Positions 31,901 to 37,900 of a stretch of 64,000 nt of DNA are shown here, piece by piece. Each line of letters starts with the position of its first letter. The first letter of the stretch is position 1. This stretch comes from Flaccisagitta enflata (taxonomy: Eukaryota), in NCBI GenBank assembly GCA_965153355.1, contig OZ231126.1, forward strand, positions 14,508,001 to 14,572,000, read 5' to 3'. A program made the translations under genes and the position numbers. The notes beneath the pieces were generated by a model. It did not search any database, was not told where the DNA came from, and saw nothing but the letters and a program-made list of their open reading frames with translations.

Positions 31901-34900
31901 ATCTTTTGTTTTTATCAGGTTTTCCCGTTTGGGCGAAGCTTTAATTCGAGTAGATTCGGGTTGAAATGTATTTAACACAGCTCTCCCCTTGCCCTAACGC
32001 TAGCTCTGACCCTAACCCTAAAACCACCCCCAACCCCAACCTTAACCCTAACCCTAAATAAAAACCCGCTTAGAAAGTCAGTAAAACAAAAGACATCACC
32101 GAATTCGAAAACAGTACCTCATTAGGCTACAGTTAAAAAATCATCAAAAAACTCAAAGTTGTTTTGGAGCTACACTTATTTTTCTTCAGAATAGATATTC
32201 ATGGTATCAAAAAATATTACTACTTGAGCATTCCAACTACGCATCGGTGCGTAGGTATCCTAATCACCTCGATCTCGCTCGCTTCGAGAGTTTCCCAACC
32301 CCTCTCCCTTGCCCACTCTCCTCCGCCACCCCCTCCCCCGGCTACCCCAACCCTTCATAGCACGTTTCGAACCCGATCATCAAAACTGAAATCGGAATTC
32401 TCTCTGCCAGATGCATAGATGACCACTAAGCGGAGCAGTTCAGATTATCGTCGTTATCATCGTCGATCGTCATCATCGTTATCATCATCCTCGTCAAACA
32501 TCGGGCATCTCTCGTCAACATCCCTGATTTTTTCGACCCCGCCGCACAGCTAGGCCGCTTCAAGGAGTCGCAACCAAGTCTTCCCCCGTCATACATAATC
32601 AATCTAAAAACCTTTTGTCATGTAAGAAACAAGCTTGAATAAAAAAAAACATTAACAACAATAACAAATACAACAATAATACAAAACTCAACAACAAAAA
32701 CAGCAAAAACAATCAGAATCCAAAATGCCAAAGCGTGCAAAATCTCCGGTTGACGAAACGATGCGTCTTCGAAGATTAGGTATGAGTGAAATTCTGAAAC
32801 GATTAAACGACGAGCAAATTCAAACTGCTGCCGATTCCGAGGCCTTCAACATCACCGATAACGGCGCTGTCGCAGTTGACGCCGCTGTCACAGTTGAGGC
32901 CGCTGGCGCCGCTGCGGCCGCTGATGCAGTGAATAGTTCTAACGACCATCACGTAAAGAAGTCAAAACCAAATACAATCAGACCTTTAATGGGCGACATA
33001 GTGGAGAGCGTTGCCAAAAGATGGTAAACAAGACTTTTGTTTAATTGTCGTCGTCGTCGTTGTTGTTGTTGTTGTTGTTGTTGTTGTTGTTGTTGTTGTT
33101 GTTGTTGTTGTTGTTGTTGTTGTTGTTGTTGTTGTTGTTGTTGTTGTCATTGTTTTTTTTGGTGGTGTTGTTGTTATAGTTGTTGGTATTGTTGCTGTTT
33201 TTTTTTTTTTTTGCTGTTGTCGTTGTTATGGTTGTTGTGATTGTTTGTTGTTGTTGCTGTTGTTGTTGTTGTTGTTGTTGTTGTTGTTGTTGTTCTAGTT
33301 GTCGTGTTTGTAGATATGGTTTTTTGTTCCTATTTTTTTAGTCGCTGTTGCAATAGATTTTTTTCCGGTATCATTTTGTTTTGGTTGTTGTTGTAGTAGA
33401 AATTCGGTTTTACTCTGGTGTTGTTATTGTTCTTGTTGTTTTCATTTTGCTGTTATTGTTGCTTTCAATCGTTACTGCTCATTGGTGTCATCGTCTTCAT
33501 TAAGCTTCCGTCGTGGTTGTGGTTGTTGTGGTGGGGGTTGTTGTTGTGATTGTTGTTGTAGTAACGCTGTTGTTATTAGACTGAGTATCTTATCATGACA
33601 CCTATAGTATATTTTCTAAATTGCAGGAACTCTACTAGGACCGACGACGGGATCTCAAATTCAAACTTGCAAAACTCATTTGAGCCACAAGGCCAAGTAA
33701 ACACACCAACCTGTTTCCAACAAGGAGGCAATGGAAACATGACAAATTCCTTTCAACATCAAAGCCAGGAAAACCAGCAACAGCAATACTCATTTCAGCA
33801 TCGAAGCCAAGCAAATCACCAAAAATCATTCCAACAACAAGGTCAAGGAGACCAGCAAAACTCACTTCAGCAGCAATGTCATGGTAGCATGCAAAGCCCA
33901 TTCCAACATCAAAGCCAAATTAATCAACAAAGCTCATTTCAACCTCAAGTTCAAGGTAACCAGCACAGCTCACTTCAATGTCAAGGCCAAGGAAATGCAC
34001 AAAACTCATTTCAACATCAAGGCCAAGAAAACCAGCAAAACTCTTTTCGACATCAAAACCAAGGCAACATGCAAAACTTTTTACAACCTCAGTGCCAGGG
34101 AAATCAGCAAAACTCATTTCACCATCAAGGCCAAGGCAACATGCAACGTGATGGCAACATACAAAACTCATTCCAACATCAAAGCCAAGAAAATCAACAA
34201 AATTCATTTCAACATCAAGGTCAAGGAAGCGAGGAAAACTCATTTCATCGTCAGGACCAGATGAACCAGCATAACTCGTTTCAATACCAATGTCAAGGTC
34301 AAAACAATATGCAAAACGGAGTTTTTTCGCAAAACCAAGGAATGAATAACACACTTAAACCGACAGGCCAAGGAAACATGTTCAACTCATTTCAACCTCA
34401 CGGTCAAGGGATCATGCCCGAACCTATGCAGTTTCAAGGCCAAGGAAACTATCCAGACATATTAAACAATCAGGGCCGATGTAGCATGTCGAATTCAATT
34501 GAATCCGATGGACAAGGACTTGTCCCAAATCCGTATGATCATCAGAGCCAGAGACAAGGAATCCTGGCAAATTCAGTCCAGACTCAAGGGCGAGGATCCA
34601 CGCGGAAGTCATTCCAACGTGATGGGAGAGGGATTATTCCAAATCCGTATGAATTCCCAGGGCAAGAGAGACTCTCAAATTCAAAAGGCCAAGGAATTTT
34701 GTCAAACCCATTTGAGAATCGAGATCAAGGGCGTGGATTTACGAAGAAAGGCTATGGGACAAACGACAGTTTCAGAAGAAACCGAGATAGAGGTCGATCA
34801 AGATCAAGCCTCGATCGAAAACGAAAAGAAGAGAAGAGAAAAGAAGAGAAGACACACCATCAACGACCCATCGGTGTTATTGGTGAGTAGGGAGCAGAGA

Positions 34901-37900
34901 GAGAGAGAGAGAGAGAGAGAGAGAGAGAGAGAGAGAGGATCAAATGATGCATGACCATTGACAAACTAACAACCGACGGTCATGAAATCTTTTGGACATG
35001 CTTTCAGTAAAGAGCCCATCCAAGACATTTTCCCCTTCTTTTTAAAATTCTAGGCATGCGGTCAATAAAAAGTAAGAATCCTGACTCAATTCTCACTCAA
35101 AAGTGGAGGAAGGGGGATCAAGCGAAGGCGCGTGAACGGCAGGAGGAAAAGGACCAGGAAAAACAAAACAAAGGAGCAAGGAAGACGATCGAGAAGAAAT
35201 CAGCAAAATTGGATGCCACGCGGAAACAATGGAAACAAAGCAAGACTCGAACGGATGAACCTTCGGAGACGATCAAACTTGCGCGTCGGAGATTCTTAGC
35301 CGTGGACGAGGAGTTCGCATCAAGTGATGACATTTACAGCGATATCAGTGATGACGCCGACGATATCAACGATGACGACGACGATGGCATCGAGGCTGAG
35401 ATCAACAACGTCGACGACGAAAACCATGACGTTGTCAGCGACGTCAGAGGACAAGAGGAACACTTAACTTATGACAAAAACAATCAAAACCAAATCGTTG
35501 ATAGACACATGAACACGGCCACTGCTCTTTTTTCATCGACTGTCACAATCAAAGAAGCTGACGGCATCCTGAGTGATGGGGAAATCATCGACGACAGTAT
35601 CCACAGCGATGAAGACGACGACAATGACGTAGAATATGGACAAATGTCACCAATGCTACCAAGCGAGACCGACAGCCCCGTAATGAGTGATGAGGATGAC
35701 GACGAGAAAGGTGACGTTAACCACTACAATGACGAGAACGATTGCACCGTTGACAAGGATTACTGTAGGATTACGTCACCTTCGTATCCTTTGGATGCTC
35801 CAAGCCCCGTGAGTGTTTTGAGTTTGGACGATGACGACGACGACAGCGACACCGTCAAAGACGACAACGACAACAAGAATAACCGCGTCGGAATTAAAGG
35901 TCAAATTCCAAATTCGTCCTCGGTCGAAGCTGAAAGCTTAAGAGTAAGAAGCGGTGGAAAATATGACGTAGAAAGTGGTAACGAAAGCGCCATCACCTGT
36001 TTTGAAATCGACGACAACCCTATCAACATCACCAGTAACCACGACAAAAGCAGTAGCGATGACAACGAGATCAAAATCAATCATGTTATCAAAATCGACA
36101 ACGACAACAACAACCACGACGTCAATGACAACAACAATGACGACAACTACATCAACCACGACGTCAACGACAACAACACCAACAACGACGTCAACGACAA
36201 CAACAACGACGACAGAAACAACAACAAAAACGGAAACAACAACAACAACAACGACATCAAAAACAGCGACAACGAAAATAAGACGAATAACAACGATAAC
36301 GAAAATAAGACCAAAAACAACAACAACAATAACAACAACAACAACAACAACAACAACAACAACAACAACAACAACAACATTAACAACAGCAACAACAAGA
36401 TCAACGCGGAAAACAATCACGATGGTAGCCACTGGTGTTCAGTTGTAGGGTTTGTTGAGCCATTTCAACAATCTAGGCAGTCTCTTCGCCCTCCTCGGTC
36501 TTCAGTGGAAGATCGACTTCACTACGAAAGACGGACTGAAGACCTCCTTCAGATGCTACAGGATATTTCCTCTCTCGAACGGACGCTCGAATCAATGCGC
36601 GCCAACGCTAAAAAGCTTATGTCAGAATTATGGAACTCGGATGAAAATAACTGAGATCTATCGCTTCTTCCTGAGGAAAACAATCAAATGAACAAGTGAC
36701 CCGGGGCTTCATTAAGACAATGTTGACGCAGACGCAGGGAAGGGTGCGCATTACACGCCATTAAGAGCTAAGAGCTCCTTATTCTTACTTTTTGGTTGTA
36801 TTGTAATGTTGTCAGACTCACAAGTGTTGCCATAATCCCTCATCATCATCATCCAATTTGTGTAACCTGTATTCTTAGATGTTTGCATTTTTCTGTGTGG
36901 AACTAGTACTTTTTTGGGTTCTTTTTTATTCATTTTTGTTAAAACAAATTAATTCGCTCTCACAATCAAATTAGCATTTACGCCAGGAGTCAAGTGCTGG
37001 TCTCCAGAGGTTTTCCAGTCTGGCAAGCGCGTGTTATTGTTTTTTGTTCTTTTTTTCTCGCTAGAGGGGATCGTCTTCTGAATAAATTGTCACTCTTTTT
37101 TCAGATGCAATGTGCGTTATTTCTCGTCCTTTTTTGAAAGAGAAAGAGAGAGAGAAAGAGAGAAAGAGAGAGAGAGAGAAAGAGAGAAAGAGAGAGAGAG
37201 AACATATACGGAACTAAAACAACCTCAACAACAACAACAACAACAACAACAACAACAACAACAACAACAACAACAACAACAACAGGATGAAGTCGAAGAA
37301 GGAAAAGAAAAAAAGCAGAAGAAAAGATAGCGAAAAAGAGAAGGTAAAGTGACAAGGAGGCAGAGGAAAAAGAAGAGGAATAAGTTCAACAACAAGTACA
37401 CGAGTTAAAAACAAGAACCACAATCACAACAACAACAACAAAAACAACAACAACAACAACAACATAAACAACAACAACAACAGCGTCCCTCAAAAAAAAA
37501 AAAAAAAAAAAAAAACAGACAAAAAAAAACAAAGAAAAAAAAACGCCGACGTCAGAATCAAAAACAAAATTCACTCACCCAAACGAATAACTCTCAACAA
37601 CGAGGGTTGAGAGAAGACATTCTTGAACCAACTGTCGAAGGCGAGACTCAGAATGGACAATATCACGACGACCAAATCGAAAATGTTCCAAGGCTGAGTG
37701 AAGTAGTGGAAGCGCAGTCCGATAAATTTGAGAAGGCATTCGGCGGAGAAGGCCGCGACGAAAATGTAGTTCATGATGTCGAGGAACGTGTTGAACTCGT
37801 CCGACGGTCGGAAGTGTTCCACCGACATGACGAGGGCGTTGAGGATGATGAGGATCGTGACGGCGATGTCGAAATTTCTGTTGGTCACGACGCGGAAGAT

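Follow-up and report, generated by a model that had tools for sequence, protein, structure and literature searches.

The window analysed here, the whole 64,000-nt stretch of DNA, comes from a marine planktonic animal and carries on its minus strand a gene for a Nav1-type voltage-gated sodium channel. One of its introns (28943-37578) harbours a second, oppositely oriented candidate gene, the entire coding sequence of which (32725-36654, plus strand) lies inside this single intron. The similarity to Nav1 channels is confined to the flanking host exons: the exon with the III-IV linker and S1-S3 of domain IV (DIV) matches solved Nav channels with an E value of 9.3e-61, and the exon from DIV S4-S5 onward with 1.6e-38, the matches being to Nav1.5 and Nav1.7. 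The intron cuts the arginine run of the domain IV S4 segment (after ..RVIRL). The intron ends and the matches of the flanking exons thus confirm the proposal, made in a sequence-only reading of this DNA, that the gene is nested antisense in the intron that splits the DIV voltage sensor. No likeness of the nested protein to channels or known auxiliary subunits was found in Pfam or PDB. Another intron of the Nav gene carries an intact Tc1/mariner transposase. The features of the locus are as follows:

28943..37578, minus strand: Nav host intron, 8,636 nt, beginning with GT (37578-37577) and ending with AG (28944-28943)
32725..33023, plus strand: coding part of exon 1, ATG at 32725, 99 codons plus 2 nt
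32746..32832, plus strand: predicted N-terminal basic helix, residues 8-36 (AlphaFold2 single-sequence model, pLDDT 70-78 over residues 1-30)
33024..33626, plus strand: intron 1, GT..AG, donor ATG/gtaaac after 33023, acceptor ttgcag/G before 33627
33627..34882, plus strand: exon 2, 1,256 nt, Q/N-rich repeats and then the start of an R/S/K basic block
33653..34729, plus strand: tandem array with 24 diverged copies of a 36-nt (12-codon) unit (family D6)
34883..35053, plus strand: intron 2, GT..AG, donor TTG/gtgagt after 34882, acceptor ttctag/G before 35054
35054..36654, plus strand: coding part of exon 3, with a basic charged helix, an acidic D/E/S block, an N/D-rich tract and a C-terminal helix; TGA at 36652-36654
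36098..36398, plus strand: AAC-type microsatellite read in frame as poly-Asn, GC3 = 0.80
36505..36636, plus strand: predicted C-terminal helix of 44 residues (exon 3 residues 484-527), pLDDT 71-82
36655..37105, plus strand: probable 3' UTR, with a putative end shortly past the AATAAA at 37081-37086

The three exons (32725-33023, 33627-34882 and 35054-36654) join to a frame of 3,156 nt encoding 1,051 amino acids and a stop. The exon coordinates proposed earlier proved to be exact, with compatible phases and GT/AG introns. Each frame border has a single strong consensus splice signal within a few codons. Intron 1 consists of 55% T and contains a (GTT)n array of approximately 82 copies at 33059-33302; in intron 2, an (AG)21 array occupies 34896-34937, and a pyrimidine tract precedes the acceptor. 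At the 5' side, an in-frame stop (32677-32679) is located 15 codons upstream of the ATG at 32725, and no pyrimidine-rich acceptor is present between the two. Both junctions are predicted from sequence signals, and no spliced read was seen.

No in-frame stop occurs over 3,153 nt, while sequence shuffles predict about 55 (on average 4.9 in exon 1, 22.8 in exon 2 and 27.4 in exon 3). The probability of a stop-free frame by chance is 0.005 for exon 1, and none of 2,000 shuffles of exon 2 and none of 2,000 of exon 3 produced one. The remaining five frames, both introns and both flanks are interrupted by stops. The exons contain only 16-20% T, and their repeat regions are open in a second frame too (frame +2 is stop-free across the exon 2 repeats). 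The non-repetitive parts, namely exon 1, the tail of exon 2, residues 1-330 of exon 3 and the C-terminus, are stop-free in the proposed frame only.

Simple repeats make up about half of the protein, and this counts against the gene reading, because such sequence can stay open without selection. The AAC-type repeat also occurs in non-coding DNA, at 37218-37284 and at 37410-37482, and intron 1 contains its complement. Signs of constraint in the proposed frame were looked for within the repeats and among sequence variants. All 23 spacings between the 24 copies of the 12-codon repeat are multiples of 3, including eight that are not equal to 36. Pairwise differences among 16 repeat units amount to 0.30, 0.32 and 0.45 at codon positions 1, 2 and 3, respectively (column permutation P 0.0125). 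Single-base variants were synonymous in six of 11 exonic cases (those falling in exons among the 40 of 73 differences listed), as compared to 19% expected for random changes; the binomial P is 0.009 at this expectation, 0.034 at 25% and 0.078 at 30%. Repeat spacing, third-position divergence and synonymous variants suggest coding constraint in the proposed frame, all three effects being modest in size. Codon-usage log-odds trained on the Nav exons discriminated weakly and favoured the proposed frame in no more than five of eight segments, which counts against the gene reading.

The gene is single-copy. In the DNA run X1 the depth was 65-775 in the bins covering it (65-262 in all but one bin), which is in the range of the Nav exons (154-687), while a repeat at 29744-32361 reached 1e5-1e6. 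Small shares of the locus are also present in the marine metagenome runs X4-X8, which were left out of this evidence. A second copy was not found within the window. Pfam detected no domain of a transposase, integrase, reverse transcriptase or capsid protein, and around the gene there are no terminal direct or inverted repeats (LTR, TIR) except for microsatellites. Thus, neither the copy number nor the search for element features pointed to a transposon ORF, a match to which would have spoken against the original proposal.

Transcription was assessed in two RNA data sets, which together gave the gene thin support. In a metatranscriptome (X9), the single-copy sequence of this locus was covered to an appreciable depth (3.0-3.4) only at 36476-37223. 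Four further bins inside the gene had a depth of 0.13-0.27, and it was 0 on the Nav exons and in the remaining unique bins of the intron. Two contigs correspond to this region, one of 280 nt at 36524-36805 with two mismatches and one of 71 nt at 37009-37079. Their cover of the gene is limited to the final 131 bases of coding sequence and the 3' UTR, and they stop just before the AATAAA, which follows the stop codon at a distance of 427 nt. The contigs carry no strand information, and therefore this signal does not show transcription of the plus strand. In a polyA RNA run from the same organism (X10), of which approximately 6% was read, 15 reads fell on the 11.2-kb stretch, all of them partly fitting and in low-complexity sequence. 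None lay fully on an exon, and as the Nav exons of the host were just as empty, the run lacks a positive control and is uninformative on either gene. In neither data set was a joint seen between 33023 and 33627 or between 34882 and 35054, at a coverage too thin to exclude them.

The module list proposed from the sequence (helical N-terminus, Q/N/F repeats, R/S/K block, acidic tract, poly-Asn and a predicted C-terminal coiled coil) was found in full, the last as a helix with a heptad pattern. Between the two ends, the protein is organised as follows:

residues ~101-470: Q/N/F repeats
residues ~451-600: basic block, net charge +25
residues ~601-900: acidic block, net charge -69
residues ~900-975: poly-Asn tract

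The 12-codon units encode Q/N-rich sequence with one aromatic residue per unit, spaced by 12 residues in most units. Basic clusters are KRAK at residues 3-6, ahead of the N-terminal helix, and RKRKEEKRK. Structure prediction covered exons 1 and 3. Residues 37-87 of exon 1 were modelled with low confidence. In exon 3, 372 of 532 residues had a pLDDT below 50, and helices were predicted at residues 10-63 and 484-527. According to these models, helices would be limited to the two ends and the basic block, and most of exon 3 would be unstructured. This is consistent with the intrinsic disorder that had been proposed, with helical ends.

The proposed C-terminal coiled coil holds as far as the heptads and the modelled helix are concerned, while pairing of the chains is a prediction in silico. 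Within residues 496-524 of exon 3, the a/d positions are occupied by L, M, I, L, L, M, A, L, L with spacings alternating between 3 and 4, and thus extend over at least four heptads. Self-pairing prediction with the C-terminal 78 residues gave 0.41, 0.38 and 0.41, the best control reaching 0.00. These scores pass the mark used for self-pairing, which 17 of 29 eukaryote homodimers and none of 30 single chains attained in the tool's own benchmark, composed without disordered chains. The predicted homodimer is antiparallel with an interface at 490-528, a pLDDT of 66-67 for the partner and agreement between runs in at least 65% of contacts. We also considered a protein with SUMO-interaction motifs, the consensus of which is a hydrophobic core flanked by acidic residues. 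An enrichment of such motifs was rejected: two overlapping matches were found at one site (around residue 771), and shuffled sequences gave 1.8 on average (P 0.51).

The protein had been described as belonging to no recognised family, and the searches, run by separate exons, agree with this. Pfam at E values up to 1 yielded nothing above the curated cut-offs and two sub-threshold chance matches on exon 1. In PDB only poly-Asn was matched (E 0.0012 and 0.0091); these two databases were the ones that covered exon 2. An exhaustive phmmer search with the C-terminal 93 amino acids against 1.84 billion representative proteins gave a single match (E 9.3e-4), a repetitive sequence of 274 amino acids which was judged spurious and rejected as a relative. 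The word-indexed searches, which are length-limited and need shared 5-mers, provided 57 candidates among longer proteins for residues 440-532 of exon 3, 1,613 among longer proteins for exon 1 and 5,440 among proteins of similar length for residues 1-330 of exon 3, with no match in any of the three. Two scans of marine metagenome contigs resulted in 570 and 583 pattern matches, none of which was confirmed, and the Atlas contained no usable match for either end of the protein. Thus, the nested protein appears to have no detectable relatives in the collections searched. The representative library does not contain the protein itself, and therefore the species, and possibly relatives, are simply not in this library.

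Among taxon-restricted (orphan) genes, those with many simple repeats form a known class, and the gene described here resembles them in having no homologue in very large libraries and a coding sequence that overlaps a minisatellite and a microsatellite. Condensate-forming proteins of the FUS family contain low-complexity, aromatic-rich 'prion-like' domains. At the level of sequence, to which this comparison is limited, such domains share with the nested protein the Q/N/S/G-rich composition, the regularly spaced aromatic residues (at intervals of 12 in most units) and the flanking R/S/K-rich sequence. However, Pfam revealed neither an RNA-binding nor any other folded domain in the nested protein, and it has no sequence relationship to this family.

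The arrangement itself, an antisense gene nested in an animal intron, is already known and common. Two articles (PMC3814207, PMC5174743) describe antisense genes nested in long introns as common in animals and place approximately 10% of the Drosophila melanogaster genes in nested structures; an example is 2mit, which sits inside a timeless2 intron (PMC3786989). Like animal nested intronic genes, the unit described here is located wholly in one long host intron, on the opposite strand and without exon overlap. It differs from them in being long, in having introns of its own and no detectable parent copy, and in consisting largely of local simple repeats. Among the literature matches listed, nothing relevant to genes nested in sodium-channel introns was found.

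Based on these data, a taxon-restricted gene for a disordered protein is probably real, and we favour, with some caution, a three-exon, single-copy gene on the plus strand inside the Nav intron encoding a largely disordered protein of 1,051 residues. Alternatively, the frame could be untranslated or barely expressed, a functionless proto-gene or decaying gene kept open in large part by A-rich, T-poor simple repeats, the RNA being intronic or antisense noise. The missing junction reads, the lack of usable coverage in X10 and of homologues in the searches made, the T-poor exons with their second open frame in repeat regions, and the non-coding occurrence of the AAC microsatellite type nearby are all in line with this possibility. 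It is nevertheless unlikely in our opinion, since the non-repetitive segments are stop-free in the proposed frame only (shuffle P 0.005 to 0/2,000), the frame-keeping repeat spacings, third-position divergence and synonymous excess point to constraint, consensus splice sites are present at the frame borders, and RNA contigs stop just before the AATAAA while the host exons have none. An erroneous extent of the gene, with the three frames being part of a transcript that is longer or spliced in another way, or of separate transcripts, is improbable: a single model was tested and the junctions and the 5' end are without RNA evidence, but the upstream in-frame stop without an intervening acceptor, the one strong splice signal of the right phase at each border, and the stop codon followed by RNA contigs and the AATAAA argue for the boundaries given here.

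Two further explanations concern the origin of the frame. It seems rather unlikely that the protein belongs to a known nuclear or condensate family, in which short motifs alone are conserved and kinship is hidden by low complexity and poor taxon sampling. The separation of the exons in the searches, the restriction of the exhaustive search to the C-terminal 93 residues, the length and 5-mer limits of the word-indexed searches, and the library that lacks the protein itself leave room for such a family, but Pfam, PDB and the Atlas gave nothing beyond the chance and poly-Asn matches mentioned above, and the lone representative match is the repetitive one. A transposon- or virus-derived frame that landed in the intron is scarcely credible. 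The very high-copy repeat at 29744-32361 in the same intron and the transposase in another Nav intron would fit with it; the single-copy depth, the lack of element-type domains and of terminal repeats beyond microsatellites, and the presence of two spliceosomal introns speak against it.

If the three-exon gene is real, it is possible, and we propose this tentatively, that its product is an intracellular, probably nuclear, multivalent scaffold that associates with itself, a suggestion drawn from composition. The location is suggested because a hydrophobic N-terminus is missing and the basic clusters KRAK and RKRKEEKRK are present. The approximately 24 Q/N-rich units of 12 residues with one aromatic residue each may provide weak repeated contacts, the basic block (+25) beside the acidic block (-69) may lead to electrostatic self- and cross-association, and the C-terminal heptad helix would pair two chains. 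A large part of the coding sequence may have grown from local simple repeats, the 36-nt minisatellite and the AAC microsatellite. More doubtful is a scenario in which a young gene was assembled within the Nav intron by capture of the two repeats between two unique parts, a short 5' exon and the C-terminal helix, and in which its antisense transcription would hinder channel production, so that the two genes would be expressed in exclusive cell types, in keeping with the mutually exclusive expression suggested in the sequence-only reading.

A real gene at this locus would be a further case of a disordered protein restricted to one taxon and of antisense nesting; both classes are common, and therefore it would change little on its own. 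It would, however, be a clear example of a minisatellite and a microsatellite turned into coding sequence under frame constraint, and it could be used to test whether transcription of a nested gene interferes with an essential neuronal gene.

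The candidate gene lies antisense within an intron (28943-37578; 8,636 nt) of a minus-strand Nav sodium-channel gene, as the sequence-only reading had claimed: the flanking exons match Nav and the intron has GT/AG ends. With E 9.3e-61, the minus-strand exon that ends at 37579 matches solved Nav channels, and its residues 48-193 align with residues 1167-1312 of the Nav1.5 chain 6uz0_A, a region comprising the III-IV linker with the MFMT motif and DIV S1-S3. The exon starting at 28942 (E 1.6e-38) spans DIV S4-S5 onward. The host intron splits a run with arginine at every third residue (..RVIRL before it, [11 protein letters not shown].. 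after it), which we take, from the alignments and from general Nav topology, to be the DIV S4 helix. A different Nav intron contains an intact Tc1/mariner-type transposase ORF of 349 aa at 48373-49422 on the minus strand (Pfam DDE_3, E 1.7e-16; HTH_Tnp_Tc3_2, E 2.4e-11). Near-identical EF-hand peptides are coded by the plus-strand exons 8836-9312 and 17579-17974, and also by 2894-3397 and 1423-1911; two copies about 8.7 kb apart have a long identical stretch in common, and Pfam matches to EF-hand_6 are of low significance (E about 6e-4, under cut-off). The exons seem to represent a small EF-hand gene (light-chain or calmodulin-like), duplicated in tandem downstream of the Nav 3' end.

The three open frames of the nested gene (plus-strand exons 32725-33023, 33627-34882 and 35054-36654) coincide exactly with those first proposed. 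The boundaries of the gene and its host intron are as follows.

Sequence signals of the nested gene and host intron
32725, plus strand: ATG start codon, 15 codons downstream of an in-frame stop
directly after 33023, plus strand: donor signal of intron 1, ATG/gtaaac
directly before 33627, plus strand: acceptor signal of intron 1, ttgcag/G
directly after 34882, plus strand: donor signal of intron 2, TTG/gtgagt
directly before 35054, plus strand: acceptor signal of intron 2, ttctag/G, with a pyrimidine tract ahead of it
36654, plus strand: last base of the TGA stop codon
37578-37577, minus strand: GT of the host intron
28944-28943, minus strand: AG of the host intron

The joined exons (3,156 nt) code for 1,051 residues, most commonly N (150), Q (110), D (101) and S (100), with one stop, at the end. 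Mononucleotide shuffles predicted 4.9, 22.8 and 27.4 in-frame stops for exons 1, 2 and 3, and none was observed; a stop-free outcome had a probability of 0.005 in exon 1, and arose in 0 of 2,000 shuffles of exon 2 and likewise of exon 3. The low T content of the exons (16-20%) makes open frames likelier. Even so, exon 1 has 8 stops in each of the other two plus-strand frames, exon 2 has 5 and 16, and exon 3 has 14 and 51; every frame is interrupted in both introns and both flanks. A second open frame is limited to the repeats, namely frame +2 of the exon 2 repeat and frames +2 and -1 of the N-rich tract. Throughout the window, long (GA)n/(CT)n and (CA)n microsatellites stand beside many Nav exons (for example at 1423-1911, 22895-23362, 27059-27853, 34896-34937, 37139-37201 and 61233-62550) and give rise to spurious long open frames such as 61366-62550. 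Thus a long ORF by itself is weak evidence for a gene in the F. enflata genome.

Constraint on the reading frame was sought in three independent tests, each of modest size, and repeat spacing, codon-position divergence and synonymous variants all pointed to it. Diverged copies of a 36-nt unit, arranged in tandem, make up most of exon 2 (Tandem Repeats Finder: period 36, 10 copies, 69% matches); the repeat finder recorded 24 of them between 33653 and 34729. The 23 spacings between copies (36 in 15 cases, otherwise 42, 54, 42, 69, 72, 72, 42 and 99) are all divisible by three, and a frameshift in this array need not create a stop, because frame +2 is stop-free there too. Aligned in register, 16 units showed pairwise nucleotide differences of 0.301, 0.321 and 0.451 at the first, second and third codon positions, and column permutation gave P 0.0125 for the third-position excess. 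Of the single-base exonic differences listed from contigs of the DNA runs X1 and X3, 6/11 were synonymous, against 19% expected at random (binomial P 0.009; 0.034 with 25% and 0.078 with 30% expected), in a partial sample of 11 exonic changes drawn from 40 of 73 differences. A 3-nt deletion at 35614 within a GAC repeat is little informative, and codon usage, scored with the Nav exons as reference, spoke weakly for the proposed frame, in 5/8 segments.

In the read archives, a DNA run of 'organism A' contained 79% of the sampled words; words of the locus also occurred in several marine metagenomes, in a marine metatranscriptome (X9) and in a polyA RNA run of organism A (X10). Reads and contigs were mapped to 27500-38700. 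About 6% of X10 was read and yielded 15 reads, all partial fits; usable depth was reached nowhere in this stretch, on neither the nested nor the Nav exons, and the stretch thus lacks a positive control. Appreciable X9 depth on single-copy sequence (3.0-3.4) was confined to 36476-37223, with traces of 0.13-0.27 in four further bins within the nested gene and zero on the Nav exon bins and remaining unique intron bins. One X9 contig (280 nt) lies at 36524-36805, with two mismatches and a 2-nt gap in the UTR, and another (71 nt) at 37009-37079; a canonical AATAAA is located at 37081-37086. Such a distribution is consistent with the 3' terminus of a separate polyadenylated transcript, the contigs being strandless and DNA carry-over possible. 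No joint across either nested-gene intron was seen in X9 or X10, both of which cover the locus thinly, so the splicing model is drawn from the genomic sequence. A 650-nt contig from the marine metagenome X3 matches exon 2 at 33669-34296 with 8 differences, so F. enflata or a very close relative was present in open-ocean samples of a separate study.

A transposon origin was weighed against copy number and flanking sequence. Word depth in X1 was 65-775 over the nested-gene bins (65-262 in all but one), 154-687 over the Nav exon bins and 1e5-1e6 over 29744-32361. The nested gene is therefore single-copy and adjoins a very abundant repeat. BLAST within the window revealed no second copy, only internal exon 2 repeats; Pfam showed no transposon-type domain in the gene, and the repeat finder no flanking terminal repeats except microsatellites. 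The high-copy repeat at 29744-32361 lies in the same Nav intron immediately upstream; its X1 depth compares with about 100 for unique sequence. It is abundant in X9 too, has only short ORFs (under 65 aa) and is probably a non-autonomous element or satellite. Interstitial telomere-like (CCCTAA)n, the complement of TTAGGG, is found at its edge (31992-32058). Part of the coding sequence itself is of microsatellite type.

AAC-type repeats at the locus
36098-36398, plus strand: poly-Asn tract, an AAC-type microsatellite translated in frame, GC3 0.80
37218-37284 and 37410-37482: non-coding AAC-type repeat
intron 1 of the nested gene: (GTT)n, about 82 copies, complement of the AAC-type repeat

The arms (GTT)n 33045-33211 and (AAC)n 36100-36420, about 165 nt each and about 3 kb apart, are 78% complementary. 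In principle, they could pair into a long intron-exon duplex in the pre-mRNA; the complementarity may be a mere by-product of the microsatellites.

The sequence-only reading had recognised no family, and the searches agree with it: none was matched in Pfam, PDB, 1.84 billion representatives, or the word-indexed, metagenome-contig and Atlas searches. Queries were separate pieces instead of the joined protein, and exon 2 was searched against Pfam and PDB only. Pfam (E up to 1) gave two sub-threshold chance matches on exon 1, and PDB matched poly-Asn only (E 0.0012 and 0.0091). Exhaustive phmmer with the C-terminal 93 residues against the 1.84 billion representatives returned one match (E 9.3e-4), a repetitive 274-aa sequence scoring via five stretches, which we judged spurious. 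Three word-indexed protein searches gave no matches, two metagenome-contig scans no confirmed match and two Atlas look-ups no usable match. The libraries did not return the nested protein itself, which means that the species, perhaps the whole group, is unsampled in them, and 'orphan' here denotes the lack of a relative among the sequences searched.

Architecture of the predicted protein (numbering of the joined 1,051 aa unless exon 3 is stated)
1-36: basic helix, KRAK at 3-6, helix predicted at 8-36 (pLDDT 70-78)
37-100: A/V-rich stretch, low model confidence
about 101-470: Q/N-rich 12-residue units, consensus [13 protein letters not shown]
about 451-600: basic block, net charge +25, including RKRKEEKRK
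exon 3 residues 10-63, part of the basic block: long charged helix (pLDDT 75-83 over 21-60)
about 601-900: acidic block, net charge -69
about 900-975: poly-Asn
exon 3 residues 484-527: C-terminal helix (pLDDT 71-82), hydrophobics spaced alternately 3 and 4

The consensus aromatic residue is present in 13/16 units, mostly at a spacing of 12, and near the array end the units decay to a G-Q-G...N-P-[FY] type. With pLDDT <50 as a proxy, 372/532 exon 3 residues are predicted to be disordered in a model from the single sequence. SUMO-interaction motifs were considered for the acidic block and dropped, as the 2 hits did not stand out from the shuffle mean of 1.8. When the last 78 residues were modelled as a pair, scores were 0.41, 0.38 and 0.41, against 0.00 for the best control, with partner pLDDT of 66-67 and agreement between runs in at least 65% of contacts. 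By the tool's own counts, 17/29 eukaryote homodimers and 0/30 single chains reach its mark, in a calibration set without disordered chains. The predicted contacts (e.g. 504-515, 511-511, 497-521) indicate an antiparallel arrangement, and the model thus lends support to C-terminal self-pairing, short of demonstration.

From composition and models together we propose a self-associating, probably nuclear scaffold as the mechanism, and hold it to be somewhat less likely than not. The aromatic residues that recur at regular intervals within the Q/N spacer, for which prion-like domains are a comparison, could make multivalent weak contacts; the neighbouring basic and acidic blocks could associate electrostatically; and pairing of two chains by the C-terminal helix would double the valency.

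According to PMC3814207 and PMC5174743, animal genes overlap most often by antisense nesting in long introns, and nearly 10% of Drosophila genes are in nested structures. In the library searched, we found no relevant report of a gene nested in a sodium-channel intron. Taken together, we consider it likely that the nested gene is a real coding gene, and are somewhat less confident of the full explanation, orphan status and disordered architecture included. It is probably real, a taxon-restricted gene whose product is a disordered protein, in an arrangement which is itself common and already known, and its location in the S4-coding part of the Nav gene is incidental unless transcriptional interference is shown.
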